Origin: Clostridia bacterium
GTDB lineage: Bacteria > Bacillota > Clostridia > Oscillospirales > CAG-272
Assembly (NCBI GenBank): GCA_017625755.1
Contig: JAGAKG010000036.1
Coordinates: forward strand, 92,952-156,951
Reading direction: 5' to 3'
DNA length: 64,000 bases
Shown: piece after piece, positions 33,869-57,212 of the stretch
How the letters are laid out: each line of letters starts with the position of its first letter
Position numbering within the stretch: position 1 is the first letter of the stretch
Notes under the pieces: model-generated
Databases searched by the model: none
The model's input: only the letters and a program-made list of their open reading frames with translations
Told to the model about the DNA's origin: nothing
Translations under genes and position numbers: made by a program

Positions 33869-35497
33869 ATGGCTACGGGAAGGGCGATAAACAGAGTAAG
33901 ATTGGGAGTAAATATGACACAGGAGCAGTTTGCAACCGCCGTTGGAGTTTCTCATCAGGCTGTGCAGAAATGGGAGTCGGGCGCGGCTATTCCATCTGTC
34001 GAAAAGTTGATGAAGATATCAAGGCTTTTCGGCGTGACGGTAGACTCGCTTCTCTTTGAGAGCGATATGAGGATATCCGAGGAGATGGAGAGCAATAAGA
34101 AGCTATACCCGAATTACGAAAAGATGTATCACAGAGAGCTTTATTCCTGCACGCTTGCCGACGAATATATACAATGCGTCGAGGAGGGGAAGGATATTTC
34201 CGCCTACCGCGATGTATTTGAGGCGGTGATGCGTATGCCGCGCGGAGCGAACAGAGAGAAAATGGCGGATATCTTGTTTGACATAGTCCTCAACGCAAAG
34301 CAGAGAGAGGGCTACCCATATAACGAGCCTTCGGATATAGAGGGGATAAGGGCTTTGAGAGCAGATTATTCTTACCGACGCAGAGCTGAGAGCGAAGCAG
34401 AGCTTAAAAAGAAGATACACGGTGCCTGGATGGGGCGTGTGTGTGGCTGCCTGCTTGGAAAGCCTGTTGAGGGAATTCGCAGCGAGGAGCTGATTCCAAT
34501 GCTCCGCGAGTCGGGCAACTATCCTATGCACAGATACATTCTGTCCTCGGATATTACAGAGGAGATAAAGAGCAACAGCAAGTTCCGCTTCGGCGGAAAG
34601 TGTTATGCTGATACGGTTAGCTGTATGCCCGTCGATGACGATACGAATTATACGGTTATGGCGCAGGAGATAGTCAGCACCTACGGCAGAGAATTCACAC
34701 CGTACGACATTTCTCTGGCGTGGCAGTATTACCAACGAAGAGAGGCGTATTGCACGGCAGAGAGAGTGGCTTTCCGCAATTTTGTGAACGGCTATGAGCC
34801 GCCCGAATCGGCGATATATAAAAATCCTTACAGGGAGTGGGTAGGAGCGCAGATAAGGGGTGATTATTTCGGATATATCAATCCTGGCGAGCCTGAGATT
34901 GCGGCGGATATGGCGTTCAGGGACGCGTGTATTTCCCACACGAAGAACGGTATTTACGGCGAGATGTTCATCGCCGCGATGATCGCCTGCGCCGCCGTGA
35001 GTGATTCTGTGGAGGATATTATTCTCTGCGGGCTTGCCCAGATTCCGTCCACATCGAGGCTTTTCGAGGCGGTAAGCTTCGTGCTTGATGTATACAGACG
35101 AGGCGGTGATACTGAGGAATGTATGTGCAGAGTACACGAGCTTTACGATGAGCATACAACCCACGGTTGGTGTCATACTGTATCCAACGCAATGATAGTA
35201 ACAATGGCGCTGCTCTGGGGTGAGAACAATTTCGGAAAGTCTATATGTCTTGCGGTTCAGAGCGCGTTTGATACCGACTGTAACGGCGCGACTGTCGGCT
35301 CGATACTCGGAATGAAAAACGGCATTGATTCGATAGGAGAGGAGTGGTACGCTCCCGTCAACGACAGGATAGATACTACGCTTTTCGGAATTGAAAGGGT
35401 GAGAATATCCGAGTGTGTTGAGAAAACTATGGCTCACCTGCCCGAAAAAAGCTTCAAGGCGGGGAAGAAAGCCGAGGGATTCAGCTATATTCCGTAA
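33869..35497 (+). CDS. XRE-family HTH domain fused to an ADP-ribosylglycohydrolase-family domain
   Basis: The N-terminus MTQEQFATAVGVSHQAVQKWESGAAIPSVEKLMKISRLFGVTVDSLL is an XRE HTH. The C-terminal roughly 330 aa carry ARH-type motifs (GAWMGRVCGCLLGKPVEG, DTDCNGATVGSILG). Confidence 0.75.
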   Translation: MATGRAINRVRLGVNMTQEQFATAVGVSHQAVQKWESGAAIPSVEKLMKISRLFGVTVDSLLFESDMRISEEMESNKKLYPNYEKMYHRELYSCTLADEYIQCVEEGKDISAYRDVFEAVMRMPRGANREKMADILFDIVLNAKQREGYPYNEPSDIEGIRALRADYSYRRRAESEAELKKKIHGAWMGRVCGCLLGKPVEGIRSEELIPMLRESGNYPMHRYILSSDITEEIKSNSKFRFGGKCYADTVSCMPVDDDTNYTVMAQEIVSTYGREFTPYDISLAWQYYQRREAYCTAERVAFRNFVNGYEPPESAIYKNPYREWVGAQIRGDYFGYINPGEPEIAADMAFRDACISHTKNGIYGEMFIAAMIACAAVSDSVEDIILCGLAQIPSTSRLFEAVSFVLDVYRRGGDTEECMCRVHELYDEHTTHGWCHTVSNAMIVTMALLWGENNFGKSICLAVQSAFDTDCNGATVGSILGMKNGIDSIGEEWYAPVNDRIDTTLFGIERVRISECVEKTMAHLPEKSFKAGKKAEGFSYIP

Positions 35498-41222: not shown

Positions 41223-43265
41223 ATGAAAAAGACTATAATTTTATTGCTTTGCTTAATGCTGATATTGCCGATGGCGCTGTCGTCGTGTAAAAAAGACGGG
41301 GATATGGGCGAGCAGAGCGACTCTGAGCAGACTACTGTCGCCACGACCGAGTACGATTACAGCAAGATTCCCGATGTGATAGAGCCGCACGAGAGAAAGC
41401 TTATCGCGTCGTCCGAGCTTGGATTGCTCGCGTATTTTACGGGAACCGAAAAATACTATGTTGCCGATGCGAAGGTTGAGGAGAACGGAGATATAACGCT
41501 GACATCGTATAACCCCGGTACAACGGTAATTACGGTTAAGAATTCCTACGGCGAGGAGATGTCGCTCACCGTTACCGTCGGTCTTGACTACGATTTTGAG
41601 AGCATTGATATAAGAAAATTTGAAATGCCCGATAATTATGTTTATGCAACCAATTACGGAATGAACCCCGAAAGGAGCGACAACGCAAAGTACCTTCAAG
41701 CTGCGATAGATTCGCTTAAGACCGGCGGTGTCGTGTATATTCCGAAGGGCAATTATTACAGCACCTTCGTCCGACTAAAAAGCAATGTAAAGCTAAGGCT
41801 TGAGGGTATTCTCCCCGAGTATAACACCGAATTTACCGACGAGCTTTCGGCGGCTATCGAGAGCGGTAATACCTTCGCTCGAATAATCGCCGTGAACGGA
41901 GATATGTTCGCTAACCACGAGAAAGGCGGATACGGAAGATACGGAGCCGATAACTTTGAGATAACGGGCGGAGTGCTTGATATGGCGGGCAAATCCAGAT
42001 GCTTTATCTGGTGCTGCGCAGAGAATGTTCTGCTTGAAAATGTTATTATGACCGATTGTATGAATGACCACGCGATACAGGTTACAGGGTGCAAAAATGT
42101 GACTATCCGCAATGTAATGTTTGCCGGATATAATGCGGGTAGTAATACGAGTGGCGCCGAGTTGATACAGATAGAGACCTCACACCCGGGAGCTATCGGA
42201 ACGGGAACGGTTACAGCGTCGAAGTTCGATGAATATGAATTTTATAGCTGTGAGAATGTAGCCATAGAAAACTGTTATTTCGGCAAGAGTGACAGGTACG
42301 ATTCTGCGACCTATTTTATCGGTCACCATGTGCATAATTCGGGGCCGAGTGTCAGGGGCTTGAAGATAATGGATTGCACATTCGACAACCCGAGAATCGT
42401 TGCCATACGCGCATACGCGTTTACCGATGTTGAGATTGCCGATTGTGTCTTTCTTTCCGACGAGTCCAACTCGGTCGTAAGCGAGGCGAGATACATGATA
42501 GAGCTGACCTTTAATACGGGGCATGTCAAGCTCCCCTCGGGCGCATATCTTTCAACCGCCGAGGACAGGGGCGGAACGCAGAATTTGCGGATACACGATA
42601 ACGAATTTACCATAGGAGATGACTCCTCTATGGCGGGATTTATCAAGACCTTGCGGTCGGGAATAACTCAGTACGACGCTATGGGATACTCAAATATTTC
42701 CGAGACGGATTTTTACACCGAGACGCCGAAAAGCTTTACGGGATATAAGCTTGTGACAACTCGGATTTCGGATATATATCTCCACAATAACAGCTTCACC
42801 GTAAGCAACGGAGCGGACGATAACCTCTTTTATCTCAAGGATGTGAGAGGCGTTGAATTCAAAGGAAATACCTTTGATATCGACGGAGTGGAGATTCTCG
42901 GCGACGATTATTACGGCGCATATCTTGAGGGTTCGACTATGGCGGAGGAATGTCGGAAAAATTTTGTTATAAAGGCAACCTCTGCAAACCGTGACACTCC
43001 GATAGTTCTCGTGTCGGCGGCTGGGAATATCGAGGCTTACTGTACCGCGTCAAGTACAGGTAGCTATTACAACCTGATAGTCAGCTGCGAGGAGGGCGGT
43101 GTGATTGAGCGTCGAACCGATAAAAACGGCGTACTTTATGTCGAGGCTGTCGCCGATGAGGGATATAAATTCGTAGGATATCGCGCCGACGGACAGATGA
43201 TTGAAGCAGAGAATTTTGCTTTCTCGACAACAACCGAAATCGAAGCGATTTTTGAGAAAAAATAA
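41223..43265 (+). CDS. Lipoprotein with a predicted right-handed beta-helix (pectate-lyase-fold) domain
   Basis: Signal peptide with lipobox LSSC. NYGMNPERSDNAKYLQAAIDSLKTGGVVYIPKGNYY is typical of pectate-lyase-3 or tailspike-like beta-helix N-caps, and repeated NVxIxNCxF-like rungs follow. Confidence 0.6.
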   Translation: MKKTIILLLCLMLILPMALSSCKKDGDMGEQSDSEQTTVATTEYDYSKIPDVIEPHERKLIASSELGLLAYFTGTEKYYVADAKVEENGDITLTSYNPGTTVITVKNSYGEEMSLTVTVGLDYDFESIDIRKFEMPDNYVYATNYGMNPERSDNAKYLQAAIDSLKTGGVVYIPKGNYYSTFVRLKSNVKLRLEGILPEYNTEFTDELSAAIESGNTFARIIAVNGDMFANHEKGGYGRYGADNFEITGGVLDMAGKSRCFIWCCAENVLLENVIMTDCMNDHAIQVTGCKNVTIRNVMFAGYNAGSNTSGAELIQIETSHPGAIGTGTVTASKFDEYEFYSCENVAIENCYFGKSDRYDSATYFIGHHVHNSGPSVRGLKIMDCTFDNPRIVAIRAYAFTDVEIADCVFLSDESNSVVSEARYMIELTFNTGHVKLPSGAYLSTAEDRGGTQNLRIHDNEFTIGDDSSMAGFIKTLRSGITQYDAMGYSNISETDFYTETPKSFTGYKLVTTRISDIYLHNNSFTVSNGADDNLFYLKDVRGVEFKGNTFDIDGVEILGDDYYGAYLEGSTMAEECRKNFVIKATSANRDTPIVLVSAAGNIEAYCTASSTGSYYNLIVSCEEGGVIERRTDKNGVLYVEAVADEGYKFVGYRADGQMIEAENFAFSTTTEIEAIFEKK

Positions 43266-43811: not shown

Positions 43812-43840
43812 TTGACAAAATATATTTACAGTAGTAAACT
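43812..43840 (+). promoter_or_regulatory. Putative sigma-A promoter of the giant gene
   Basis: TTGACA (43812-17), a 17-nt spacer, then TAAACT (43835-40). Confidence 0.45.
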
Positions 43841-43865: not shown

Positions 43866-43903
43866 TTACCGCATAATTCCCGTTATGCGGTAAAATTTTT
43901 CTT
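43866..43903 (+). promoter_or_regulatory. Leader hairpin with U-tract (possible attenuator) in the 5' UTR of the giant gene
   Basis: ttaccgcataa-ttcccg-ttatgcggtaa forms a perfect 11-bp stem and is followed by aatttttctt. It lies 12 nt upstream of the GGAGG RBS. Confidence 0.45.
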
Positions 43904-43928
43904 GTACTACATTATGGAGGTAAATCTA

Positions 43929-46900
43929 ATGAGTAACACCAAAAAAATGTGGATTCGCATTTTGTGTTTGACTTTCGTGCTGTTCAGTATTTTTGCACTG
44001 AACTCCTGCGACGAGAATGACGCAAGCGCTGAATGCGAGCACACATGGGGCGAATGGACGGTTGTGTCCGAGGCTTCCTGCGAGGAAGACGGAGAGAAGC
44101 AACGCGTTTGTTCTGAATGCGAAGAAACAGAAACGAGAGCCATAGCGGCGCTTTCTCACGATTTCGGTGAATGGAGCGTAACTAAGGCGGCAACCTGTAC
44201 CGAGGAAGGCGAGGAGACGAGAGTTTGCTCTCGTAATTCCGAGCATACCGAAACCCGCACGGTTGCAAAAATTGCCCACACCTTTGATGTTGAGAAGGAA
44301 GATGTGGCGTATCTGAAGAAAGAGGGAAGCTGCACAGAGAAGGCTGTATACTACAAGTCGTGTAAGTGCGGCGAGAAGGGAACCGAGACATTTGAGAGCG
44401 GAACACCTTCACATACATACGACAGAGAGGTCGTTGACGCGAAGTTCCTCAAGAGCGAGGCAACATGCACCGCTAAGGCTGTGTACTACAAGTCCTGCGA
44501 GTGCGGCGCGTTTGACGCTGAGAGCAGCGAGACCTTCGAGAGCGGAGCGACCATTCCTCACACATACGGTGAGTCGGTAGTGGCTCCGAGATATCTCAAG
44601 AGCGAAGCAACCTGCACGGACAGAGCTGTTTATTACAAGTCCTGTAAGTGCGGCGCCTTTGACGCTCTCGCGAGCGAGACTTTTGAGAGCGGAAGCCTTG
44701 AGTCTCACAAATACGACAGAGCTGTCGTTGACGCCGAGTACCTCAAGAGCGAAGCTAACTGTAATTCGGCAGCTGTATATTACAAGTCTTGTAAGTGCGG
44801 CGCGTTCGATACGGGCGTAAGCGGAACCTTTGAGAACGGCGACAAGACACCTCATGTTTATGACAGAGCTGTTGCCGAGTCGAAGTATGTCAAGACTCCC
44901 GCAAGCTGCACCGAGAAGGCTGTATATTATAAGTCGTGTAAGTGCGGCGCGTTCGATAAGAGCGTAAGCGAAACCTTTGAGAGCGGGGCGCTTATGCCTC
45001 ACAGCTATGATAAGAGAGTCGTTGACGCGAAGTACCTCAAGAGTGAGGCTACTTGTACCTCTAAGGCTGTATACTACAAGTCTTGTAAGTGCGGCGACTT
45101 TGATACTGCTCTTAGCGATACATTCAAGAGCGGTGAGATGCTGCCTCATATCTATGACAGAGAGGTAGTTTCCTCAGAGTATCTCAAGAGCGGGGCGACC
45201 TGCACGGCTAAGGCTGTATACTACAAGTCCTGCGAGTGCGGACATAAGGGAAGCGCAACCTTTGAGTACGGCAATATTCTGCCTCATGTATACAACAAAG
45301 AGGTAGTTGCAGACAGATATCTCAAGAGCGGAGCGACCTGCACAGAGCTGGGCGTATATTATAAGTCCTGTGAGTGCGGCGCGTTTGACGCAGACCTGAG
45401 CGCAACATTCAGCGGCGGCGAGCTTATTCCTCACACATATAACAGAGAGGAGGTTGCCGACAAATATCTCAAGACCGAGGCAACCTGCACAGCTAAGGCT
45501 GTATACTACAAGTCCTGCGAGTGTGGCGCGTTCGACCGCTACGATAGCGAAACCTTTGAGAGCGGTACCACCATTGCTCATACCTACGATAGAGAGGTAG
45601 TTGATTCCAAGTACATCGCAAGCGAGGCAACCTGTACCTTGGCGGCTACATATTATAAGTCGTGTAAGTGCGGCGCGTTTGACGCGTCTCTCAGCGCAAC
45701 CTTTGCGTACGGCGAGCCTATCGCTCATACTTACGACAGAGAGGTCGTTGAGGCAAGATACCTTGCAAGCGCGGCTACCTGCGAGGCAAGAGCGCGTTAT
45801 TATAAGTCCTGTAAGTGCGGCGCGCACGATAATGCTCTCAGCGGAACATTTGAGTATGGCGACCTTCAGGGACACAACCATGTTCAGATAGCATTTACCG
45901 CGGCAACCTGTACGGTTGACGGCGTCAGAATAGAGGAGTGTACCGTCTGCGGTGATACGATAGAAACTCCTATCATCGCGCAGGGACACAACTATGTTGA
46001 CGAGGTGGTTGAGCCTAAGTGTCTGACTGTTGGCTACACTAAGCATACCTGTTCCGAGTGCGGAGATAACTATTCCGATTCCGAGGTTCCCGCAACGGGA
46101 CACCTTGTATTCGACGATAGGGTTATCGCGCCCACCTGCGAGGACGGCGGATACACCGAGCATAAGTGCAATGCGTGCGGATTTATTGAAAAAATCAATC
46201 CCACCGCAAAGCTCGGCCACGATTATCAGGAGCAGATTCTGACTCCCGCGGACTGTAAGACGGCGGGAACAAAGAAGATAAGCTGCTCGAGATGTGACTA
46301 TGAAAATACCGAGACTATACCTACCACGGACCATAACCATAACTCGGTTACGACTCCCGCAACCTGTACGGTTGACGGATATATAACCTACACCTGCGTA
46401 TGCGGAGATACATACACCGTTGCTGGCGAGGCAGCTCAGGGACATAGCTGGAGCAAGACTCCTGTTTCTCCCACCTGTACCGAGCAGGGATACACTTTCT
46501 GGGAGTGTGACAACTGCGACGCAGAGGAGAAGCACGATTTCGTTGCGGCTAACGGACACAGCTTCAGTGCCGCAACCTGTGCCGAGCCCGAGAGGTGCGC
46601 GTGCGGAGCTACGGGCGCTGCGGCTACTGGCAATCACAATTATGTCGGAGTAGAGACGACTGCTCCCACCTGTACCGTAAAGGGTGTTATGACATATACC
46701 TGCGGTACCTGCGGAGATTCTTATACAGAGGACATAAGCGCGACGGGACACAACACCGAGGGAGCTATCTGGACGGAGACCGAGCAGTGTATAGACGGCA
46801 AGTGTACTTATGTAAAGATAAGCACTACGACCTGTCTTAACAACAATTGCGGAGTTACCGTTTCCGAGACATCCGCTTCCTATGAGAAGCACTCCTATTT

Positions 46901-49900
46901 GGCAACGATAACTCAGGCGGCAACCTGTACCGTACCCGGTATCAAGACATATAAGTGTACCGTCTGCGGCGGTCAGCCCGCTGAGAACGCGACCGTTGAG
47001 TATTCCGAGGCATCGGGACACACCTGGATCGAAACCGCTTCGACGACGACTACCAAGTCCTACGAGTGCTCTGCTTGCGGCGAGACAAAGACGGTAGTAC
47101 ACAGCGACGGTAACTCGGCGAATGTCGGTGCGAGCGACCTCAGCTCCTCGGGCGGAGTCAACCTCGGCGGAACCGAAATAGAGCTTGACTCGGCTACCAA
47201 GGAGCAGTTGGGACAAATCACTCAGACTGAGAATATTACTGTCTCCGTCAATAAGATAGAGGGAAATGACAGAAACGACCTTGTCAACGACGAGACTCAG
47301 CTTGAATATATCGGCGACGCTCCCATCTACGACCTCACTATGTTGATAGGCGGAGATGAAAACAACAAGATAAGCAACTTTAACGGTAAGGTCACCGTTC
47401 GTATACCCTACACGCTTGAGAGCGGCGACGACCCCGAGAATCTTACCATCTGGTATATTGATGACAACGGAGAGGTTTCCACTATCGACGGAGCGACCTA
47501 TGTCGTTATCGGCGGTCAGGGATATGCGGTATTCGAGACCGACCACTTCTCATACTATACCGTTACAAAGCTCACCCCCGCAGAGCGTTGTGAGCGTGAC
47601 GGACACATAGAAAAGACTATCAAGCAGAATGCAACCTGCCTTATAGGCGGATACGAAAAGACAGTATGTACCCGTTGCGGAGAGGTTCTTGAGAATAAGA
47701 CAACTCCCGCGCTCGGACACAATTGGAGCCAGGAAGTAATCTCCGAGGCTACCTGTGACGAGGCAGGTCAGACCAAGCACTCCTGCGACAGATGTAAGCT
47801 CGTTTACTACACGGTAACTGCTGCTATCGGTCACAAGTGGGCAGAGGATAAGACTGTTGAGGCAAGCTGCTCCGAAACAGGATATATTCTTTACATCTGT
47901 GAAAATAACAAGGCGCATACCTATACGGTAGTTATACCTAAGAAGAACCATAGCTATGTATCTGTGGTTACAAAGCCTACATGTACGACAGAGGGATATA
48001 CGACTCATACCTGCTCTGATTGCGGAGCAAGCTATATCTCCGACCGCGTAAAGGCAACGGAGCATAAGATAGTAACCAAGGTAGTTGAGCCTACCTGTAT
48101 CTCCGAGGGATACACGGCACAGTCCTGCGAGAAATGCGGACAGCGTTTCAAGGATATAGACATAGTTCCCAAAACGGGACATAGCTGGGATATAGAAGCT
48201 CCCACTTGTAGCAAGGGACAGACCTGTACTGTATGTAACGCGGCGGGTGATGCTGCTACGGGCGAGCATAATATGACAGAGAAGGGCGAATGCTCCGATT
48301 GCGGAAAGGCGTGCGAGCATAAGTTCTATCAGGGAGAGGTTCACGCTCCCACATGTATTGAAAACGGTTACACCGAATACATCTGTAACTTCTGCGGACT
48401 CGTTGAGAACCGCGATGTCGTAGAGCACGGCGACCACACCTGGAAGGATGCCGAGCATAAGGCGGCAACCTGTACCGACGACGGTTACGATAAGTGGATA
48501 TGCTCTGTATGCGGTGAGACCAAGACAGAGATAATTTCTCACGGAGACGGATTCCATAAGACCTCTACCAAGGTCGTTGCTCCTACCTGCGAGGAGGAGG
48601 GATACACACTTCAGTTCTGTAAGGTCTGCGGACAGGAAATAGAGCGTACAAACGCAGTTCCCGCAACAGGACACAAGTATGAGGTAATCGAGAATGTCGA
48701 GGCTACCTGCGAGAAGGACGGTTATATAATTGCCAAGTGCGCGGGTTGCGGACACGAGACCGAAAAGGTACTTGAGGCAACGGGACACAGCTACAGTGTT
48801 TACGAGGTTATAGAGCCTGAGTGCGGCAAGGAAGGCGCGACTGTATACAAGTGTTCGGGCTGTGGCTCGACATACGAGGAGCCTATCGAGGCGCTTAAGC
48901 ATAACTTTGAGCAGTACGGTAAGGTAGAGCCTACCTGTGAGGGTGAGGGAGCTATACTTTACAGATGTACCGCCTGCGGAGTTGAGATAGCGGAGATAAT
49001 CAAGGCAAACGGACATAACTACGAGCTTTCCGAGACGGTTGATTCTACCTGTACAGTAAACGGTAAGAAGATATACGCTTGTACGGCTTGTGACTCCACC
49101 GTGGAGGAGGAGCTTGAGCTGGCTGACCACAATTATGTTGACGGTAAGTGCGAGGCGTGCGGAAAAGAGCAGTCCTCTTGCAAGCACGCAAGTCTTGAAG
49201 ATTGCGATGTAACATACAAGTTTATAAACGGCTCGACTTCCTGCGAGGAAGGTGTTGAGGTGATCTACACCTGCCCGAACTGTGAGCAGGTAGTAATCTC
49301 CGAGATAAGAGACGGACATATTTACAGACGCGAGGATATTTCGGCTGACTTTGATGTTGCGGGTAACATTTTCGTTGAAAAGTGTATAATCTGCGACAGA
49401 GGAGATATCTATATCAAGCTTCCCAACTGTCAGATGATGTCTACGACAGATAAGCATATTGACGAAGAAGGAAATACCGTCGTAGTTGAGACATATCTGT
49501 GCGTTGACTGCGGATTCAGCTATACTCGCAAGATGACCGTGAAGTCGGAAGACTGCAGGTCTGAATATGAGTATGTATACACATTCGGTAAGGACGGATA
49601 CACCGTAAGAATAGTGAACATTGCGGAGTCTCACAACTACTTTACCGAGTGGGAGGAGTTTATTGACGAGGAGAATCTCACACTCACCGAGGTCGGAATA
49701 CGCTCCTGCAAGGATTGCGGCAAGGTATTCTACCGCAGAACAGATACGATGAAGTATCTTGCTGAGGATATTCCTCTTGAGTTTATTGAGACATTGGAGC
49801 TTGCTCTTGACGATAAGGGAACAGAGTTTATTTTGGTTGAGAAGGAAGCTCAGCGCGCTGAATACGAGATAACCGAGGACGGTGAGTATATCCCCGTTGC

Positions 49901-52900
49901 TATGGTTGGAAGCTATACCACTTACAACAGTAAGGGTGAGCCCGCAACCGTAGAGGAGGAGATAGAGAAATACACCGCCGACGGCGATGAGAGCTATTTC
50001 TACGCGGCACTGTATAATTACATCTGCGGCGAAAAGGTACTCATAGAATATGAGGAAGAAGAATATGTTACAGTCACACTGCCCGGCGGATACGAGAAGA
50101 ACTTTATCGCATCCAACAAGGCGGGTGAGTATGACATAAACGGAGAGGTCATCTACCTTTACGAGGAGACCTACACCTACGAGATAATTGAGGGTGAATC
50201 CTGCAAGATCAATGTAACTTACTCCGATTCCGAGGGTAACACGGATACCTTCGTTAAGGAAGCGCATGTCAATGTTGAGAAGTTTATCGAATTTGCAGAA
50301 GGCTCGAACAGCTGTACTCAGGGTGTATATACCGTAGAGAGATGTACCGTTTGCGAGACCGAGATAAACCGTACTTACAGAACACACCATTCGCTTTATA
50401 GCTATGCTGACGATGAAATCGATGCGGGCGAGCTGGGATGCGAATGCGGCGGATTTATATCTCGTGTTCACTGCGAGTACTGCGATTATGAGTCTGTAAA
50501 TTACCACTTCAACTGTGATATGTCTGAGGGCGGATACGATTACGACGGCGACGGTAAGTTCGATACTCCCGAGGTCGTTCTTCCCGTATTGCCGAACGAC
50601 TCCAAGTACGATGTCGGATACGGCACCGTTGACGGAGATATCGCGTATGACGAGGAGATCGGCGGCGATAACTGGGGCGAAATCGTAGATGGAGATACGA
50701 CTACATCGACCTTCAAGACCGAGCAGACCTGCCGCAACTGCGGATTCAGCTATTCTGTTGAATGGTACACCGAGCGCGGCGAGAACTGCCAGGTTACTAA
50801 GTATTACACATATAGCTTTGGTAAGGATGCCGACGGAAACGCTCTGCTCGTAATAGAAACGGTAGACGATTCGAGCTACACGCATTCCTACACAAGCGAA
50901 GAGAAGATGCTTGAGGATACCTACGAAACTCAGGCTGACGGAAGCGTACTGCTTGTAACTGTCTTTGAAACAAAGACATATTGCGTAAGTTGCGGTCATG
51001 TTTCAAGTTACGAGCGTGTTACGGTTAAGCGCGACACCGAGGGCTATGTTCTTTACGAGGGACGCGAGCATATAAGCGGTGAAGGCGATAATAGCTATGT
51101 ATCCGAAAAGATAGAGACTATCTACGAGAAATATAAGCATCCCGACGGAACTGTCGAGACACGCCAGACCGGCTGGGGTGAGTACAGATACAACCAGCTC
51201 GGCGAGGAGATTTATTTCTCGAGAGACACCTATATATACAATGATGAAACTCCCTGTATCGTAACCGTTATCTGGGAAAACTCGAACGGTGACCGCGAGG
51301 AGCATAAAGAAGAAAACCACGAATTTACCAGAGTTCCCGTACTCGTAGAGGGTGCGGAGAGCTGTGAGGACGGCGTTCGTATCGTTGACAGATGTACCGT
51401 CTGCGGATACGAGGAGGACGAGGGCAGAACAGTCAATTGGCACTATACCGTAAACGAGCATATCGACTTTGCGCCTTACGGCTCTATCTGCGGAGCTTGG
51501 ATGAATATTGAAACTTGTGCGTGCGGACAGAGTTCTTACATCTACTTCGAGCGCGCGGGAATGTTCAATATTCAAAATGGCTCCTACAAGGACGAGAACG
51601 GCAATATGCACAAGCTCGAACGCGGCGAATGTATGGCTGACGGCTTCTGGTACGAGATAGACTACTATTCGGTAAGAGGAGAGAACTGCTCTGTTACCGA
51701 GTATTCGGTATATCGCTTCGGTAACTCCGAAAGCAAGGAAGCGCTCCTTGAAAAATCGATAGTAAGAGAGAGAAAGGGCGCTCATAAGACAGAGTTTAAG
51801 GAGATCGTCAATGAGACGACTCAGGAGTTCGACGAGGTAACGGGCGAGGTTCTGAATGTTCATACATACGAGGTAGCTCACACATGTATGAATTGCGGAA
51901 CTGTAACAGACCACTACCGTACGGTCGATAAGAACGACAAGCTCGGAAATTCCGTATATCATAAGAACGAGAATTTCTTTACCGCTTCGAATGGCGTTGA
52001 GTATCTGGGTAACAGCTTTGAGGCACTCTATATGTCCGTAAAGCTTGCCGATGGAAGCATAGCTACGGTAGAGCTATCCACCTCCAATAAGGAATACGAC
52101 GAAAACGGAAATCTTACCTGGTTTGAGGATACCGTTTACGAGTATGTCGGCGGATACTGTGAATATATTGCTCACAGGACAAACAGCGACGGAAACGAGT
52201 GGGAAGAAAAGGGTGAGAATCACGGAGCGACTGTTGAGAGAGTAACTCTCATGGAAGGCGCCGAGACATGTGACGACGGTGTTATATGTACTCATGTATG
52301 CCTGCTCTGCGGAAAGGAAACATACAGAACCGAATTCTATCATCACTATACCGTATATGAGAGTGTTGATCTTAGCGAGTACGGCTGCAAGTGCGGCGGA
52401 CAGTTCGATGCCAATACCTGCGCGTGCGGAATGTATAATAACTTCGATATAGGCGCAGGCTGTGCGTTCGAGTCCACCCGTACAACGGTAGTTGACGCAG
52501 AGGGCAACAAGCATACTGTTACGACCTATACCTGTATGAACTGCAACTTCTCTTACTCGAGAGAGACCTGGAGAGAGACAGGCGCGTTCTGCCATACCTA
52601 CTACTACACGGTATTCAATATAGGTCTTGATGCGGAAGGCAATGCGGCGATAGTCAAGACCACGGTTAAGGATGCGGGAACCTCCCACAACATCACGACT
52701 GAGGGCGGAGAGGCTATAAAGACCACCGAGACCGATGAAAACGGAAATATACTTACCGTAGTTACGACAGAGATAAAGAATTACTGTCTCATTTGCGGAA
52801 CCGTTGAAACGCACTTCGTAACGGTTGAAAAGTACAACGCAAACAACGATGTTGTTTACAAGGCCAACACGAATTACGCCTTTGCCGATGGAAAAGAGTA

Positions 52901-55900
52901 CATCTGTAACGAGATTGTTGAGAAATTCGAGATAGTACTTCTCGCAAACGGAAATCAGAAGCAGCTTTTGACAGAATCCTCTAATTACACCTACGCTCCC
53001 GACGGAAGCATACTTGAATTTATCGTATATGAATACGAGTATACAGAAGGCGATTACTGTAATGTTAAGGTTACATACAACAGTAGCAATGGAAGCGATA
53101 GCTATACCGAGGAAAGACACGGTAGCCTCCAGGAGAGCTTTGCTCTCATGGAGGGCGCTACCAACTGCTATGAGGGAGTTCTTGTAACCAACACCTGCCT
53201 TGATTGCGGTAAGGTAGTAAATACCGAAGAGATTTACAGACATGTTACCAGATGTGAGACGGTAAATCTTAGCGAGTACGGAAGTGTATGCGGCGATTTC
53301 ATTGACTTCTATTCCTGCCCCTGTGGCGAGAATAATCATTACAAGCAGGCTTATGCGTGCGCTTACACCTGCGTGGAAAGCAAGTATGATATACTAAACG
53401 GATTTGAGCGTGCATACGAGGCTTACCGTTGTATGAATTGTGGTTTCGAATATACCTACGAGCGTTGGACGGAGCTTGACGAGAACTGCAACGGCGCTCA
53501 GTACACCAAGTATTCCTTCGGTAAGGACGAAAACGGCAATCCTCTCGGTGAGAAGATAGTTGAGATTTCTATGAAGGAAGCTCATAATTGGACATATGAC
53601 GAGGATATCGTTGAATCTGTGGAGACAGACGAGAACGGTAACACACTCAAGGTCATCACTACCGAGAGAACCGAGTACTGCTCGAACTGCGCGAAGCGTA
53701 GCTTCCGCGAGATTACCGTTGAGAAATTCGACGATAAGGGTAACATAGTATTCAGAGAAACAAGCAGATACTATACCGACGAAAAGGGAGAATATCTCTC
53801 CGAGACTGTTACAAGCACATTCGCGACGGGTGTTAAGGCAGACGGCACGAGCTTCACATATGAGGCTTCGCGCAAGACGCTCTACCACTACGGTATTGAC
53901 GCAGGCTACTGGTGCCAGTACACCTACACCTACAAGGACGGAAACTGGTGCACAAGGTATGTCACTATGACTGCATCCGACGGAAACAGCAATAGCTATG
54001 TCGAGGAGAACCACGGAGAGTACAAGACGGTAGTTACGCTTATGGACGGAGCGGCAGACTGTAACAGCGGCGTAATCGTAAGCGAGATGTGTGTCGACTG
54101 CGGAACCGTATTTAAGTCTTACGATGCTTATCATCACTATATGGTAACTGAAAGGATAGATGCGTCCACACTTGGTTGCGGCTGCGGCGGAGAGGTAGTT
54201 ATTGACGCCTGCGCTTGCGGATATCAGTCGAATGTTCATGTTAAGACCGGTTGTACATTCAATATCACCTCTGACAAGGTAGATAACGGAGACGGAACGA
54301 CTCATAACACCAGCATATACGCCTGCGATATCTGCGGCTTCAGCTATACCTATGAGCGTTGGAACGAGTATGACGAGAACTGCGTCAACTACAACAACAA
54401 GGTTTATAAATTCGGACTTGACAAGGAGGGCAATCCTCTCCTTGTCAAGGAGATCAGATTAAGCCGCGGTGAGAATCACAGCTACTCGGGTATCAATAAC
54501 GAAGCTGTTGAAACCACAGAGATAGACAAGGCAGGAAATGAGCTTCGCGTCGTTACTACAACAGAATCGAACTCCTGCACGCGTTGCGGCAGATTCGGTC
54601 ATATGAATGTAACCGTAGAGAAATACCTTACCGCAAACGCTGAAATGGGCGACGAAATCTGCGTATATATCTGCAAGGAAAACTATATCCCCTCTGTCGA
54701 GGCAGAGAACGGTATCTATCTCCATAGCCAGGATATATGGGAGTACGGTTATTACACCGACGCACACGGTAAGCTCGCTACCTATCCTACTCTTGAATAC
54801 ATCGTATACTACAATGTTTACGGTGAGATAGACGACTTCCAGCGTTACGAGTATTCCTACAAGGAAGGCAACTATTGCGTTGCAACGGTGCTTTATACTA
54901 ACTTCTACGGAGACAAGAGCGAGGAAGTAAGAACGAATCACTCCGAAGTTCACTTTGATTACATTCTCTCCAAGGGAAGCGAGTCCTGCGCTGACGGAAT
55001 CGACCTCGTAGAGCTTTGCGTAGCCTGCGGAACCGAAATATCCCGTATGGAAAATTACACCAAGGAGCATCTGTTCTGCGATACCCCCTCGAGTGTAATA
55101 GACCTTGAGCAGTACGGCTCTGTCTGCGGCGGCGAGCTTCAGATATTCACCTGCCCTTGCGGAAAGAAGGAGAACACAAATATAGTTTCGGATTGTCCCT
55201 TCAACTATACGGGCGAGTATTACACCTACACGGCAGCGGACGGAAGCACCCATACCCGTGAGATAATGACCTGCCCCGTTACCGACCCCGAGCTTTGCGG
55301 ATTCAGCTATGTCTATATTGATTGGCAGACCTCCGATGAGAACTGTATGGCAGTTTCCCATCGCGTTATCCTTCTCGGAGTTGACGCCAAGACAGGAGAT
55401 TACGCTTATAAGTATGAGGCTACCTACGGTGAGGATTATTACAATCACTCGATGATAAATTCTTATAACACCTACATCACCGACGACGGCAAGACTGTTA
55501 CCGAGAGTGTAAATACCTGCGAGAAGTGCGGAGCCATATCCTACAAGAACATAACAACATCTTATGTTGACGAAAACGGAGACAATGTTTTTGAGCAGGA
55601 GTCATACTATTATAGGACGGAATTGGCGGATAACGCCGTTCTCAGCCATAATTACAGAATAAACATCACGAGAGATGTTAAGGTTGGCGACGAGACTCGT
55701 AGCGTAACGGTTTACACAAAGAACGAGGAATACGGCTATCTCGATGAGCTTATGTATTGGACTGAGGAATCCTATGTATATAACGAGGAATCCTGCTGTA
55801 CGGGAACAAGAAATGTGAAGAGATACCATGCGGATAAGGATATAATCAACGAGGAAAGCTACGACTTTGATAATCATTCAATCCACAACAGCGAGATTAT

Positions 55901-57212
55901 CGTTGAGGCAACCTGTACTCAGGTCGGAATAGCTGTTCATAGCTGTGGCTACTGCGATTATTCCTACCAGACCGAGGACGCTCCTATGGGACATATGTAT
56001 CAGTTCAAGCCCACAGAGAATTTGTGGATATGCCGCAATTGCGGACTTGAGAATTTCACGGGCGTCGACGGAGAGGTTATCTTTGAGGATCTCACAGCCC
56101 GTCGCGGCGACGGAAGCCGGTATATTGTCGGTTACCGCAACCACTGGGGAAGTGAGTATATCTTCTCGCTTTATCTCGTGATAGACGGAGAGGAGCTTCC
56201 GATAGACCTTGAGGCTATTGACGACGGAAAATCTCTCGTATATATTGATGTAAACGCCGTTGCTAAGCTTGCCGAGGCTATGGGATATAAGCCCTGCGCT
56301 TATATGGTATGCCTGCGCTTCGTGCCGATAGGCGACGATTCGGGATACTACTATGATTTTGCTATCACGCTTGATCCTCACGCGTACGCCATAGACGAGG
56401 AAAACAGCGTAATTCCCGAGGATCCCTGCACGCAGCAGACGGTTACCGCTTATAAGTGTGTTCTTTGCGGCGACAGCTACACAGAGACTGTTCTCGCGGG
56501 ACACGACACAGAGTGGATAAGCAATTCTATCGGTGATTGCGGCTCGGCTATCAATGTTGAGGTCTGCAAGGTGTGTGATAAAATTTTCACCGTAGAGAGA
56601 CAGCAGGCTTGTGACTTTGAGTATACCTGTTCCACCGAGACCGATGAGAACGGTATTACCCGTACGATAGAAAATTATGTCTGCCGCAACTGCGGAGCAA
56701 GCTATGCGCACGAGTATTACACAATCTCCAAGGAGTCATGCTTCTCTGATGAGTACAGCATTACCAGATGGGGACTTCAGGATGACGGAAGCTATGCTTT
56801 CGAGGCAACGGTAGTTACCGAGAGTGAATCTCATATCTATGTTTCCAAGAGTGACATTACTGAGGAAGGATATACTACCGTAATCACCAAAACCACGGCG
56901 TGTGAGGATTGCGGAAAGATATCGAGTCAGAATATAACTACTACCGTAGTAGACGAAAACGGACACAATGTATCTCAGCTTATAGATAGCTTGACTTCTA
57001 ACGGTGTTCGCACCAAGAATTACAGAGAGTACTTTACTGCCGAGAACGGTGGCTCCTATGAGTCAATTCGCACATTTGAGCGTATTGACGCGAACGGTGT
57101 GTTGACCGGTTATACTATGGTTTACGAGTATGACTTTGAGGCAGGCGTTCGCTACTGGACCAGAACCGATGTTAGCGGAAAGGTTACAGAAGGAAAAGAC
57201 GCTATAAAGTAA
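43929..57212 (+). CDS. Giant (about 4,427 aa) Cys/His-rich multi-repeat putative surface lipoprotein, function unknown
   Basis: One uninterrupted ORF. GGAGG lies 8 nt before the ATG at 43929. The signal peptide MSNTKKMWIRILCLTFVLFSIFALNSC has a lipobox-like Cys. Three tiers of repeats follow, then terminator hairpins. I see no C-terminal LPXTG, SLH or TM anchor. Confidence 0.85.
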   Translation: MSNTKKMWIRILCLTFVLFSIFALNSCDENDASAECEHTWGEWTVVSEASCEEDGEKQRVCSECEETETRAIAALSHDFGEWSVTKAATCTEEGEETRVCSRNSEHTETRTVAKIAHTFDVEKEDVAYLKKEGSCTEKAVYYKSCKCGEKGTETFESGTPSHTYDREVVDAKFLKSEATCTAKAVYYKSCECGAFDAESSETFESGATIPHTYGESVVAPRYLKSEATCTDRAVYYKSCKCGAFDALASETFESGSLESHKYDRAVVDAEYLKSEANCNSAAVYYKSCKCGAFDTGVSGTFENGDKTPHVYDRAVAESKYVKTPASCTEKAVYYKSCKCGAFDKSVSETFESGALMPHSYDKRVVDAKYLKSEATCTSKAVYYKSCKCGDFDTALSDTFKSGEMLPHIYDREVVSSEYLKSGATCTAKAVYYKSCECGHKGSATFEYGNILPHVYNKEVVADRYLKSGATCTELGVYYKSCECGAFDADLSATFSGGELIPHTYNREEVADKYLKTEATCTAKAVYYKSCECGAFDRYDSETFESGTTIAHTYDREVVDSKYIASEATCTLAATYYKSCKCGAFDASLSATFAYGEPIAHTYDREVVEARYLASAATCEARARYYKSCKCGAHDNALSGTFEYGDLQGHNHVQIAFTAATCTVDGVRIEECTVCGDTIETPIIAQGHNYVDEVVEPKCLTVGYTKHTCSECGDNYSDSEVPATGHLVFDDRVIAPTCEDGGYTEHKCNACGFIEKINPTAKLGHDYQEQILTPADCKTAGTKKISCSRCDYENTETIPTTDHNHNSVTTPATCTVDGYITYTCVCGDTYTVAGEAAQGHSWSKTPVSPTCTEQGYTFWECDNCDAEEKHDFVAANGHSFSAATCAEPERCACGATGAAATGNHNYVGVETTAPTCTVKGVMTYTCGTCGDSYTEDISATGHNTEGAIWTETEQCIDGKCTYVKISTTTCLNNNCGVTVSETSASYEKHSYLATITQAATCTVPGIKTYKCTVCGGQPAENATVEYSEASGHTWIETASTTTTKSYECSACGETKTVVHSDGNSANVGASDLSSSGGVNLGGTEIELDSATKEQLGQITQTENITVSVNKIEGNDRNDLVNDETQLEYIGDAPIYDLTMLIGGDENNKISNFNGKVTVRIPYTLESGDDPENLTIWYIDDNGEVSTIDGATYVVIGGQGYAVFETDHFSYYTVTKLTPAERCERDGHIEKTIKQNATCLIGGYEKTVCTRCGEVLENKTTPALGHNWSQEVISEATCDEAGQTKHSCDRCKLVYYTVTAAIGHKWAEDKTVEASCSETGYILYICENNKAHTYTVVIPKKNHSYVSVVTKPTCTTEGYTTHTCSDCGASYISDRVKATEHKIVTKVVEPTCISEGYTAQSCEKCGQRFKDIDIVPKTGHSWDIEAPTCSKGQTCTVCNAAGDAATGEHNMTEKGECSDCGKACEHKFYQGEVHAPTCIENGYTEYICNFCGLVENRDVVEHGDHTWKDAEHKAATCTDDGYDKWICSVCGETKTEIISHGDGFHKTSTKVVAPTCEEEGYTLQFCKVCGQEIERTNAVPATGHKYEVIENVEATCEKDGYIIAKCAGCGHETEKVLEATGHSYSVYEVIEPECGKEGATVYKCSGCGSTYEEPIEALKHNFEQYGKVEPTCEGEGAILYRCTACGVEIAEIIKANGHNYELSETVDSTCTVNGKKIYACTACDSTVEEELELADHNYVDGKCEACGKEQSSCKHASLEDCDVTYKFINGSTSCEEGVEVIYTCPNCEQVVISEIRDGHIYRREDISADFDVAGNIFVEKCIICDRGDIYIKLPNCQMMSTTDKHIDEEGNTVVVETYLCVDCGFSYTRKMTVKSEDCRSEYEYVYTFGKDGYTVRIVNIAESHNYFTEWEEFIDEENLTLTEVGIRSCKDCGKVFYRRTDTMKYLAEDIPLEFIETLELALDDKGTEFILVEKEAQRAEYEITEDGEYIPVAMVGSYTTYNSKGEPATVEEEIEKYTADGDESYFYAALYNYICGEKVLIEYEEEEYVTVTLPGGYEKNFIASNKAGEYDINGEVIYLYEETYTYEIIEGESCKINVTYSDSEGNTDTFVKEAHVNVEKFIEFAEGSNSCTQGVYTVERCTVCETEINRTYRTHHSLYSYADDEIDAGELGCECGGFISRVHCEYCDYESVNYHFNCDMSEGGYDYDGDGKFDTPEVVLPVLPNDSKYDVGYGTVDGDIAYDEEIGGDNWGEIVDGDTTTSTFKTEQTCRNCGFSYSVEWYTERGENCQVTKYYTYSFGKDADGNALLVIETVDDSSYTHSYTSEEKMLEDTYETQADGSVLLVTVFETKTYCVSCGHVSSYERVTVKRDTEGYVLYEGREHISGEGDNSYVSEKIETIYEKYKHPDGTVETRQTGWGEYRYNQLGEEIYFSRDTYIYNDETPCIVTVIWENSNGDREEHKEENHEFTRVPVLVEGAESCEDGVRIVDRCTVCGYEEDEGRTVNWHYTVNEHIDFAPYGSICGAWMNIETCACGQSSYIYFERAGMFNIQNGSYKDENGNMHKLERGECMADGFWYEIDYYSVRGENCSVTEYSVYRFGNSESKEALLEKSIVRERKGAHKTEFKEIVNETTQEFDEVTGEVLNVHTYEVAHTCMNCGTVTDHYRTVDKNDKLGNSVYHKNENFFTASNGVEYLGNSFEALYMSVKLADGSIATVELSTSNKEYDENGNLTWFEDTVYEYVGGYCEYIAHRTNSDGNEWEEKGENHGATVERVTLMEGAETCDDGVICTHVCLLCGKETYRTEFYHHYTVYESVDLSEYGCKCGGQFDANTCACGMYNNFDIGAGCAFESTRTTVVDAEGNKHTVTTYTCMNCNFSYSRETWRETGAFCHTYYYTVFNIGLDAEGNAAIVKTTVKDAGTSHNITTEGGEAIKTTETDENGNILTVVTTEIKNYCLICGTVETHFVTVEKYNANNDVVYKANTNYAFADGKEYICNEIVEKFEIVLLANGNQKQLLTESSNYTYAPDGSILEFIVYEYEYTEGDYCNVKVTYNSSNGSDSYTEERHGSLQESFALMEGATNCYEGVLVTNTCLDCGKVVNTEEIYRHVTRCETVNLSEYGSVCGDFIDFYSCPCGENNHYKQAYACAYTCVESKYDILNGFERAYEAYRCMNCGFEYTYERWTELDENCNGAQYTKYSFGKDENGNPLGEKIVEISMKEAHNWTYDEDIVESVETDENGNTLKVITTERTEYCSNCAKRSFREITVEKFDDKGNIVFRETSRYYTDEKGEYLSETVTSTFATGVKADGTSFTYEASRKTLYHYGIDAGYWCQYTYTYKDGNWCTRYVTMTASDGNSNSYVEENHGEYKTVVTLMDGAADCNSGVIVSEMCVDCGTVFKSYDAYHHYMVTERIDASTLGCGCGGEVVIDACACGYQSNVHVKTGCTFNITSDKVDNGDGTTHNTSIYACDICGFSYTYERWNEYDENCVNYNNKVYKFGLDKEGNPLLVKEIRLSRGENHSYSGINNEAVETTEIDKAGNELRVVTTTESNSCTRCGRFGHMNVTVEKYLTANAEMGDEICVYICKENYIPSVEAENGIYLHSQDIWEYGYYTDAHGKLATYPTLEYIVYYNVYGEIDDFQRYEYSYKEGNYCVATVLYTNFYGDKSEEVRTNHSEVHFDYILSKGSESCADGIDLVELCVACGTEISRMENYTKEHLFCDTPSSVIDLEQYGSVCGGELQIFTCPCGKKENTNIVSDCPFNYTGEYYTYTAADGSTHTREIMTCPVTDPELCGFSYVYIDWQTSDENCMAVSHRVILLGVDAKTGDYAYKYEATYGEDYYNHSMINSYNTYITDDGKTVTESVNTCEKCGAISYKNITTSYVDENGDNVFEQESYYYRTELADNAVLSHNYRINITRDVKVGDETRSVTVYTKNEEYGYLDELMYWTEESYVYNEESCCTGTRNVKRYHADKDIINEESYDFDNHSIHNSEIIVEATCTQVGIAVHSCGYCDYSYQTEDAPMGHMYQFKPTENLWICRNCGLENFTGVDGEVIFEDLTARRGDGSRYIVGYRNHWGSEYIFSLYLVIDGEELPIDLEAIDDGKSLVYIDVNAVAKLAEAMGYKPCAYMVCLRFVPIGDDSGYYYDFAITLDPHAYAIDEENSVIPEDPCTQQTVTAYKCVLCGDSYTETVLAGHDTEWISNSIGDCGSAINVEVCKVCDKIFTVERQQACDFEYTCSTETDENGITRTIENYVCRNCGASYAHEYYTISKESCFSDEYSITRWGLQDDGSYAFEATVVTESESHIYVSKSDITEEGYTTVITKTTACEDCGKISSQNITTTVVDENGHNVSQLIDSLTSNGVRTKNYREYFTAENGGSYESIRTFERIDANGVLTGYTMVYEYDFEAGVRYWTRTDVSGKVTEGKDAIK
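44277..45872 (+). repeat. Eleven tandem 45-49 aa (135-147 bp) coding repeats (tier A)
   Basis: Consensus HTYDREVVDAKYLKSEATCTAKAVYYKSCKCGAFDxxxSETFESGxxxP. Nine units are 49 aa, one is 45 and one is 46, which totals 532 aa and fills the interval exactly. The YYKSC(K/E)CG cores recur at about 44341, 44471, 44620, 44770, 44915, 45063, 45210, 45350, 45493, 45645 and 45790. Confidence 0.9.
45873..47102 (+). repeat. Tier B block 1: about 11 coding repeats of roughly 38 aa with an H...C-x9-C-x2-C pattern
   Basis: Examples are GHNYVDEVVEPKCLTVGYTKHTCSECGDNYSDSEVPAT and GHSWSKTPVSPTCTEQGYTFWECDNCDAEEKHDFVAAN. Two related units also lie at the N-terminus (about 44030-44276). Confidence 0.8.
47580..49178 (+). 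repeat. Tier B block 2: about 15 further H...C-x9-C-x2-C repeats
   Basis: Examples are HKIVTKVVEPTCISEGYTAQSCEKCGQRFKDIDIVPKT and GHKYEVIENVEATCEKDGYIIAKCAGCGHETEKVLEAT. A Cys-free insert at 47103-47579 separates this block from block 1. Confidence 0.8.
49179..57209 (+). repeat. Tier C: eight divergent super-modules of about 260-357 aa, plus one divergent interruption
   Basis: Module-initial C-x9-C-x2-C knuckles have their first Cys codons at 49242, 50313, 51363, 52269, 53166, 54060, 54987, 55914 and 56427. Recurrent internal landmarks are HHY, YGCxCGG...CACG, YxCxNCGFSY...ENC, FGxDxxGN, TDENGNxLxVxTTExxxYCxxCG, TVEKxDxxGN and YCxxxVTY. Confidence 0.8.

Follow-up and report, generated by a model that had tools for sequence, protein, structure and literature searches.

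The ZU5 superfamily was unified by Zhang et al. (2012; PMC3482391) and comprises the ZU5 domains of PIDD and UNC5CL, FIIND, GAIN/GPS and Nup98. Recently, the MAIN (Microbial Autoproteolysis INducing) domains, with Bacillus subtilis YfkN as the prototype, were described as carrying an HxS motif, of which the form HFS is cleaved between F and S in vitro as well as in vivo according to Edman sequencing; the MAIN domain of YfkN itself is cut between the F and S of its HFS (Brogan and Rudner, May 2026; 10.64898/2026.05.12.724683). Replacement of the Ser by Ala abolishes cleavage, and the cleaved fragments stay associated (10.64898/2026.05.12.724683). Virtually all MAIN proteins are composed of a signal peptide, a cargo, the MAIN domain, and a wall anchor at the C-terminus, and the structure-based annotation in the preprint labels the domains ZU5 or GPS (10.64898/2026.05.12.724683). 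Here, we describe a giant gene in a stretch of 64,000 nucleotides (nt) from an uncultured gut Clostridia bacterium (assembly GCA_017625755.1, contig JAGAKG010000036.1, positions 92,952 to 156,951), hereafter the window. Its open reading frame (ORF) of 4,436 amino acids (aa), at 43902..57212 on the forward strand, encloses an entire repeat region (45873-49178) in which units of approximately 38 aa are arranged in two blocks around an insert. We consider it moderately probable that this region is the proximal half of a giant, N-terminally anchored surface protein, combining a metal-clamped stalk with an insert that cleaves itself.

The Cys/His repeat unit and its distribution

The strict pattern H-x10-11-C-x9-C-x2-C, whose ligands are called here the opening His, C1, C2, and C3, matches 18 times within aa 658-1759 of the ORF, and 2,000 shuffles of the same residues gave a mean of 0.03 matches and a maximum of two. 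The original prediction, made from the DNA letters, had counted about 11 units in the first block and about 15 in the second, and a unit profile arrives at the same totals, with eight full and three degenerate units at aa 656-1067, and 11 full units, one C-x5-H variant, and three short units at aa 1234-1759. The profile also recovers the two H-x-W/F-GEW units proposed for the N-terminus (aa 47-125), the first of which is preceded by an additional Cys (C45-E-H47). The separator described as Cys-free over about 160 aa indeed contains no Cys in its 162 residues (aa 1068-1229), while the surrounding region consists of 7% Cys.

Directly upstream of the noted region, at aa 126-657, there are eleven further variant units of 49 aa with the pattern H-x17-C-x9-C-x-C(G), which the prediction had missed. 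They are much more alike than the 38-aa units and can be seen in the DNA as a 147-nt tandem repeat (44417-45854, 9.8 copies, 67% matches), pointing to recent growth of the proximal stalk. No tandem repeat signal in the DNA comes from the 38-aa units, which have diverged too far for it and are therefore old and kept by selection. Altogether, the protein has approximately 24 units on the N-terminal side of the insert and 15 on its C-terminal side; within the window, neither units nor the insert domain were found in any other ORF.

When four-unit stretches are aligned (34 rows), the single His and three Cys that had been proposed for each unit are the columns that are invariant or nearly so. Over 1,630 unit matches, His is the sole residue wherever its column is aligned, C2 is conserved at 100% and C1 and C3 at 80-84%, together with a Gly four residues past C1 at 98%. 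In the giant protein, the block-2 unit at aa 1310 has His as its third ligand (C-ENNKA-H), and the final unit of block 1, GHTWIETASTTTTKSYECSAC, immediately before the insert, is without C1.

The unit might have belonged to an already curated repeat family, a caveat raised with the prediction itself, and no match to it was found in Pfam, NCBIfam, or the PDB. Pfam and NCBIfam scans with the whole protein and with sub-regions gave nothing above threshold, the only hits being fragments of zinc-ribbon knuckles at E = 0.03-3, and a PDB sequence search with the repeat region returned chance-level matches only, among them rubredoxin at E = 0.2-0.8. A Foldseek search of the PDB with a four-unit model gave nothing at E <= 1e-3 and template modelling (TM) scores of at most 0.24, an elongated multi-unit query being a poor probe for a 38-aa module that may still resemble single zinc ribbons. 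A search of the literature for a zinc or Cys repeat of such kind found none. Neither Pfam, NCBIfam, and the PDB nor the searchable literature thus has a description of the unit; its general kind is that of a small metal-stabilised beta module or stalk repeat, and the new element is the proposed sharing of ligands between repeats.

A homologue search with block 2 scored 8,000 candidates, of which at least 3,973, all non-redundant, reached E <= 1e-3. These secreted proteins come from Ruminococcaceae, Oscillospiraceae, and unclassified Clostridia, and some of them add dockerin, cohesin, SLH, Big_2, LRR_5, CAP, or transglutaminase domains. The unit is in no curated database and yet is this common, and in rumen and gut Clostridia it adjoins dockerin, cohesin, SLH, LRR, Big_2, and CAP domains, so that a large share of the "hypothetical" surface proteins of the gut microbiome may be built on it. 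When the four-unit model was compared with a viral model library, the sole matches were two human-gut metagenomic "phage" proteins in which the unit repeat is present, A0A8S5QLF9 and A0A8S5SUG5 of BFVD (E = 7e-12 and 3e-5), one of which is annotated as an SLH-domain fragment and the other as a leucine-rich-repeat protein. Either these are surface proteins carried by prophages, or the DNA is bacterial and was binned as viral.

Ligand geometry and the kind of site

The original prediction placed one C3H metal site in each period and drew all four ligands from a single unit, giving one knuckle per unit. One four-ligand site per period is retained here, whereas the assignment of all ligands to one unit is at odds with the predicted secondary structure, the covariation, and the bookkeeping of ligands. 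Since these three lines agree, the site is probably made of C1 of unit n together with H, C2, and C3 of unit n+1, and would clamp neighbouring units to each other.

Structure prediction had been proposed for a few tandem units, and AlphaFold2 was run on four (aa 1589-1741, 34-row alignment), resulting in a mean predicted local distance difference test (pLDDT) of 97, a predicted TM score (pTM) of 0.68, and three beta-strands per unit. C1 (15) and C2 (25) are set apart by a strand of seven residues (19-25), and the next His (41) follows the strand 31-36. The sheet being antiparallel and three-stranded, H, C2, and C3 would therefore be at one end and C1 at the other, beside the His of the next unit; from this separation of C1 and C2, we infer a shared site.

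Covariation was calculated as mutual information with average product correction (MI-APC) on 459 non-identical consecutive pairs of canonical units from 269 proteins (effective number of sequences 394), which were aligned by their anchors, as a MAFFT alignment spread to 335 columns and was discarded. The predicted sheet topology is reproduced in both units of the pair. Strands beta1 and beta2 are coupled through C1-5 with C1+6, C1-4 with C1+7, and H+4 with C1+8, and strands beta2 and beta3 through C1+8 with C3+4, C1+6 with C3+6, and C1+3 with C3+8, while the His and the knuckle of the same unit are connected by H+2 with C3+2, H+1 with C2+1, and G-1 with C2+2. Between units, C1+1 of unit n is coupled to G-1 of unit n+1, that is, the residue after C1 to the residue before the next His.

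The ligand bookkeeping, based on a sample of 3,079 units, points in the same direction. Where C1 of a unit is absent, 76 of the 136 next units (56%) carry an extra Cys or His no more than five residues before their His, in the form of C-x-H or H-x-H, compared with 135 of 1,837 (7.3%) where C1 is present. Such compensation was found in 57 of the 65 proteins that have a case of this kind. In the homologues, units that stand first in an array bear an extra Cys or His within five residues upstream of their His in 73% of 124 N-terminal cases, as against 11.5% of inner units. The unit directly before the insert is without C1 in 124 of 136 homologues, whereas 11% of all units are. A cruder test, which asked only if C1 loss depends on having a next unit, gave little contrast (13.6% vs. 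10%), as degenerate units escape the profile. The alignment of the insert family (A2) has an invariant C171 and an H176 conserved to at least 90%, with the consensus RLTPAERCAxYGH that sets a Cys five residues before the first post-insert His. At the start of the second array, C1230 is predicted to be the fourth ligand of the first block-2 site, and C45 can serve in the same way for the first N-terminal site.

The third ligand is variable in its spacing and nature. Among the 3,079 units, it occurs as C-x2-C in 2,208, C-x-C in 247, C-x4-C in 227, C-x3-C in 45, and C-x5-H in 130. The general marks of a metal-binding repeat, namely four conserved ligand positions, substitutions among them, and compensation, are all present in the units. 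A metal ligand set fits better than disulfides because of the replacement of Cys by His, the compensation by His, the odd number of Cys per unit, and the anaerobic host, and Zn(II) would be the most likely metal.

Some caveats apply to the shared site. The site is deduced from secondary structure, covariation, and ligand statistics; the Fisher test on compensation (p = 4e-43 for C1-absent against C1-present) overstates independence, as the units share descent; and 44% of the units that follow a C1-less unit are without an obvious compensating ligand. In addition, two units of the giant protein, at H658-N-H660 (45873-45881) and H811-N-H813 (46332-46340), carry H-x-H despite a preceding C1. The latter unit also has a C-x-C knuckle in place of C-x2-C, and its additional His may compensate the changed knuckle geometry.

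Three other explanations of the Cys/His pattern were weighed. The Cys-rich composition of an extracellular protein with 5.4% Cys over its whole length would suit disulfides, or a metal-free structure, as in extracellular repeats of the EGF or granulin kind, yet three Cys per unit is an odd number, His is conserved as strongly as Cys, 130 units have His in place of Cys, and a lost Cys is compensated by H-x-H, which is impossible for a disulfide partner. The hosts are, moreover, strict gut anaerobes, with sporulation genes in the window and all relatives coming from gut metagenome assemblies, and we regard disulfides as very improbable. The earlier reading, in which every 38-aa unit is a self-contained C3H zinc knuckle and the units are independent beads, agrees with a period that contains one His and three Cys and with the weak, sub-threshold similarity of single knuckles to the zinc-ribbon and rubredoxin families. 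It is nevertheless quite unlikely in view of the 7-residue strand between C1 and C2 in the high-confidence model and of the covariation, which sets C1 at the hairpin tip opposite H, C2, and C3. A lost C1 finds its replacement in the next unit and not in the own unit, array-first units bear an extra upstream ligand while having their own C1, and the last units before the insert lose C1 while retaining H, C2, and C3. The sites might also bind iron as in rubredoxin, so that the rod would be an extracellular electron conduit, for which the weak rubredoxin similarity of the C-x2-C-G knuckles (E = 0.2-0.8) and the anaerobic setting could be cited. This is extremely improbable: one site per unit with 7-residue strands in between gives an estimated spacing of approximately 25 Å, well beyond efficient electron tunnelling, structural Zn sites typically have a His ligand and variants such as C-x5-H, and no cytochrome or redox partner genes adjoin the giant gene.

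The insert domain

The insert had been read as an independent beta-sandwich and as a possible ligand-binding or display module. AlphaFold2 (40-row alignment) predicts a beta-sandwich with short helices at a pLDDT of 93.6 and a pTM of 0.88, in line with the former part, while the latter part is unlikely in view of a ZU5/GAIN-like fold with an invariant HFS. Foldseek matched the model in the PDB to the ZU5 domain of ankyrin (4d8o, E = 1.4e-3, probability 1.00, query TM score 0.44; 3kbt_C, query TM score 0.51), and further to the ZU5 domain of UNC5b (3g5b) and the GAIN domain of BAI3 (4dlo, probability 0.97, query TM score 0.39).

H156-F157-S158 is among the invariant columns of the A2 alignment. 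The motif is kept in 150 of 150 aligned homologous domains, of which the representatives are no more than 50% identical to one another, while the position before the His varies (N, D, T, E, or S). In the model, it is situated in the turn between the last two strands (E147-156 and E159-164). Homologues of the insert were identified with HMMER without an index, giving 2,964 representative proteins at E <= 1e-3 and 589 at E <= 1e-10, nearly all of 1,500-5,700 aa; word-indexed searches with the insert alone or with its profile retrieved no relatives, or 11 short proteins only. Of the 150 best homologues, 149 carry units.

The A2 profile was also compared with a five-sequence database of validated MAIN domains, consisting of 93-aa N-terminal fragments without the HFS half (Table S8 of the preprint, 10.64898/2026.05.12.724683). 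It matched SaMAIN of Streptococcus agalactiae (E = 1e-5, 14.3 bits) and SmMAIN of Streptococcus mitis (E = 6e-5, 11.8 bits) in a co-linear alignment, and the other three fragments were not significant. Because of the ZU5/GAIN-like fold, the invariant HFS in the last turn, and the low-scoring profile alignment with SaMAIN and SmMAIN, the insert is most likely a MAIN-type autoproteolytic domain with a predicted cut at F1216|S1217.

Several observations count against this assignment. The structural matches are moderate (TM 0.37-0.51, best E = 1.4e-3), the insert sequence has no match to Pfam ZU5, GPS, or Nucleoporin2, and the similarity to the validated MAIN domains is weak and confined to their N-terminal halves; a PDB sequence search with the insert profile likewise gave chance-level matches only. 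The architecture of the insert family is also the reverse of that of MAIN proteins, with the anchor at the N-terminus, the domain at approximately 18-27% of the length, and the cargo at the C-terminus.

Ankyrin ZU5 domains are not known to self-cleave. As many ZU5 domains are uncleaved, including these best structural matches, the insert could be a beta-sandwich without catalytic activity, used for binding or display, in which HFS is conserved for folding only. We consider this unlikely, as HFS is kept without exception in the beta-turn that is the cleavage site of GAIN and MAIN domains, and the positions flanking it vary. The domain also occurs once per protein and always between stalk segments, a placement more in keeping with a break point than with a binding head at the distal end. 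Autoproteolysis at HFS is accordingly the reading retained below.

In a scan of a species-representative genome collection, the motif TxHFSYYTV with a confirmed match was found in 126 stretches. The 80 loci listed of these all belong to metagenome assemblies of gut or rumen, with no cultured strain among them; they are labelled mostly as Clostridia (Christensenellaceae, Oscillospiraceae, Ruminococcus, Faecousia, and others), with a few labelled Bacilli, Erysipelotrichaceae, Staphylococcaceae, or Acidiphilium. The yfkN gene of B. subtilis and other cultured organisms were not among the matches of the genome scan with the insert profile.

Protein architecture, genomic setting, and comparison with known systems

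In the proposed arrangement, the 38-aa units and the 49-aa variants would be stalk modules, each folded as a three-stranded antiparallel sheet, with a tetrahedral metal site, most likely occupied by Zn(II), at every unit junction. At the beta1-beta2 hairpin tip of unit n, C1 would meet the opening His and the C-x2-C knuckle of unit n+1, and the metals would clamp neighbours in such a way that the array forms a continuous interlocked rod and not beads on a string. At array starts, the missing partner would be supplied locally by C-x-H or H-x-H before the first His, or by the Cys of RLTPAERC after the insert, and where a partner is not needed, the ligand would be dropped, as in the last pre-insert unit without C1. 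The insert would cut its own backbone at F1216|S1217 by an N-to-O acyl shift, after which the last strand (SYYTV...) would remain hydrogen-bonded in the sandwich. The lipid-anchored N-terminal fragment would consist of the approximately 24 units and most of the sandwich, its proximal rod carrying the sandwich past the cell wall, and the C-terminal fragment of 3,220 aa would comprise one strand, 15 units, and the large repeats. Joined only non-covalently and in mechanical series with two stiff rods, the two fragments might be separated by tension along the rods, which would extract the SYYTV strand and free the cargo.

We tentatively propose, at somewhat less than even odds, that a very common, undescribed extracellular 38-aa unit with inter-repeat metal sites builds a cross-braced rod of tens of nanometres in series, in one large family, with a reversed GAIN-like fuse. 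The cell would then keep the sandwich and the released cargo would take the "tethered" strand, and such a metal-dependent stalk with a fuse would be without solved structural precedent. If metal does bridge the repeats, this would be a new way of making a stiff extracellular rod, dependent on zinc and reducing conditions, and it could give protein engineering a building block of compact size. To the just-described MAIN domains, the insert would add an inverted architecture with an N-terminal anchor, present in at least 126 species, in which the strand that serves as a tethered agonist in adhesion G protein-coupled receptors (GPCRs) goes with the released fragment. It would also bear on the use of MAIN-type domains as mechanical break points and on the reach of Gram-positive lipoproteins beyond the cell wall.

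The mechanical ORF begins at TTG 43902, from which residues are numbered here. The true start is likely ATG 43929, which gives 4,427 aa, because a GGAGG ribosome-binding site (RBS) precedes it by seven bases (43916-43920). GenBank lists the same 4,427-aa product, beginning at ATG 43929, as "hypothetical protein" MBO5415874.1 of a Clostridia bacterium metagenome-assembled genome. A TTGACA-type -35 box is present upstream of the giant gene near 43813. The N-terminus, MSNTKKMWIR-ILCLTFVLFSIFA-LNS-C, i.e., MSNTKKMWIRILCLTFVLFSIFALNS-C, looks like a lipoprotein signal; Asn at position -2 is atypical for a lipobox, and close homologues have the canonical lipobox L-[TS]-[AS]-C. A lipobox-like motif was found in 86 of 130 homologues with a recognisable signal, and others have an N-terminal dockerin or cohesin. 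In the homologues P0148, P0156, P0165, P0174, and P0146, for instance, an N-terminal dockerin (GDVNGDG...) or a cohesin plus dockerin replaces the lipobox, by which the cassette of stalk and predicted fuse appears to be plugged into cellulosome-type scaffolds as well. A C-terminal LPxTG was found in none of the insert-family homologues, and the C-terminus of the giant protein is without LPxTG, SLH, or a transmembrane segment. The features of the giant protein are summarised in Table 1.

Table 1. Features of the giant protein and their coordinates in the window (nt), with the basis of each assignment.
Feature	Coordinates	Strand	Basis
Likely start ATG, signal peptide, and lipobox-like ...FALNS-C36, putative N-terminal lipid anchor	43929..44009	+	RBS, GenBank start, homologue signals
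Two H-x-W/F-GEW variant units, aa 45-125	44034..44276	+	Unit profile
Eleven 49-aa variant units H-x17-C-x9-C-x-C, aa 126-657	44277..45872	+	Profile and 147-nt tandem repeat
Unit block 1, aa 656-1067: 8 canonical 38-aa and 3 degenerate units	45867..47102	+	Unit profile
ZU5/GAIN-like (MAIN-type) beta-sandwich, aa 1060-1233	47079..47600	+	AlphaFold2, Foldseek, profile search
H1215-F1216-S1217, predicted autoproteolytic motif; predicted scissile bond F1216|S1217 (nt 47549|47550)	47544..47552	+	Motif invariance, model position
C1230-ERDG-H1235: invariant Cys on post-domain helix, then His of first post-insert unit	47589..47606	+	A2 alignment
Unit block 2, aa 1227-1759: 11 canonical and 3 short units, and one C-x5-H variant	47580..49178	+	Unit profile
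C-terminal 2,670 aa, predicted released cargo: large Cys/His-rich repeats	49179..57212	+	Self-BLAST, repeat alignment

In the homologues, the insert domain starts at a median of 18% of the protein length and is followed by a median of 1,861 residues; in the giant protein, 3,220 residues follow the predicted cut. The part at aa 1760-4436 comprises seven full repeats, which are approximately 300-350 aa long and share about 25% identity, plus an incomplete eighth copy near the C-terminus, with 11-16 Cys each. Every large repeat opens with a unit-like H...C-x3-GV-x5-C-x2-C and has further conserved C-x-C, C..CGF.Y, and C-x2-CG motifs, and none has a Pfam or NCBIfam match. These repeats are common to only five of the other 149 insert-family proteins (six of 150 including the giant protein) and are therefore outside the conserved core.

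The genes around it, namely those for dipicolinate synthase A/B together with comEC and typA, are in keeping with a Firmicute that forms spores. Two antisense ORFs on the minus strand inside the giant gene, 45174-47546 (790 aa) and 47550-50999 (1,149 aa), are most likely shadow ORFs resulting from its biased codon and amino acid composition (rich in E, T, G, and Y) and not genes. Directly upstream, 41223-43265 (+) encodes a 680-aa protein with weak matches to right-handed beta-helix (pectate-lyase-like) families below the Pfam thresholds, and further upstream, a 1,006-aa ORF at 29694-32714 (+) has zero Pfam matches. In the ORF at 33869-35497 (+), a DNA-binding domain of the HTH_3 (XRE) type at the N-terminus is fused, in an unusual combination, to an ADP-ribosylglycohydrolase domain (E = 2.8e-47).

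Among the known systems, the stalks of fibrillar adhesins, built from Big_2, Rib, SpaA, or Ig-like domains, resemble the units as tandem repeats that project a distal part (PMC9210967). The units differ from them in being approximately 38 aa long and three-stranded, not Ig-like, and in matching no Pfam stalk family; they would be stabilised by metal, whereas the stalk repeats of adhesins have a hydrophobic core or an isopeptide bond. Zinc ribbons and rubredoxin (zinc_ribbon_2, Zn_Ribbon_TF) share with the unit the C-x2-C-G at a beta-hairpin turn, the small all-beta build, and a tetrahedral four-ligand site, which is proposed for the unit. A zinc ribbon has two C-x2-C in one domain, while the unit has one C-x2-C together with one His and one isolated Cys, and it further differs in that a Cys would be contributed by the preceding unit, in its extracellular location, and in its arrays of 10-40. 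In the cross-brace of RING and PHD domains and in the DnaJ cysteine-rich domain, the ligands of neighbouring sites are interleaved within closed two-site domains. In the unit array, such interleaving would run along the entire array, and no homology is indicated.

The ZU5 superfamily has the autopeptidase motifs HFS in PIDD and UNC5CL, SF|S in the FIIND of NLRP1 and CARD8, HL|T in the GAIN/GPS of adhesion GPCRs, and HF|S in Nup98. The insert resembles these domains in its fold, its H-hydrophobic-S/T motif, and a cleaved strand that would stay associated, and it is unlike them in lacking Pfam-level sequence similarity and in having no toxin, RHS, death-fold, or seven-transmembrane partner here. 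The Cys/His array around the insert is absent from the main text of the MAIN preprint, and the supplementary tables give isolated zinc-ribbon or rubredoxin-like labels beside ZU5. The MAIN domains share with the insert the GAIN_B/ZU5-like beta-sandwich with H-F-S before the last strand, and their proteins share with the insert family a very large size, secretion from Bacillota, and fusion to adhesion-type repeats. In MAIN proteins, the last strand stays on the cell, whereas in the insert family, it would leave with the cargo.

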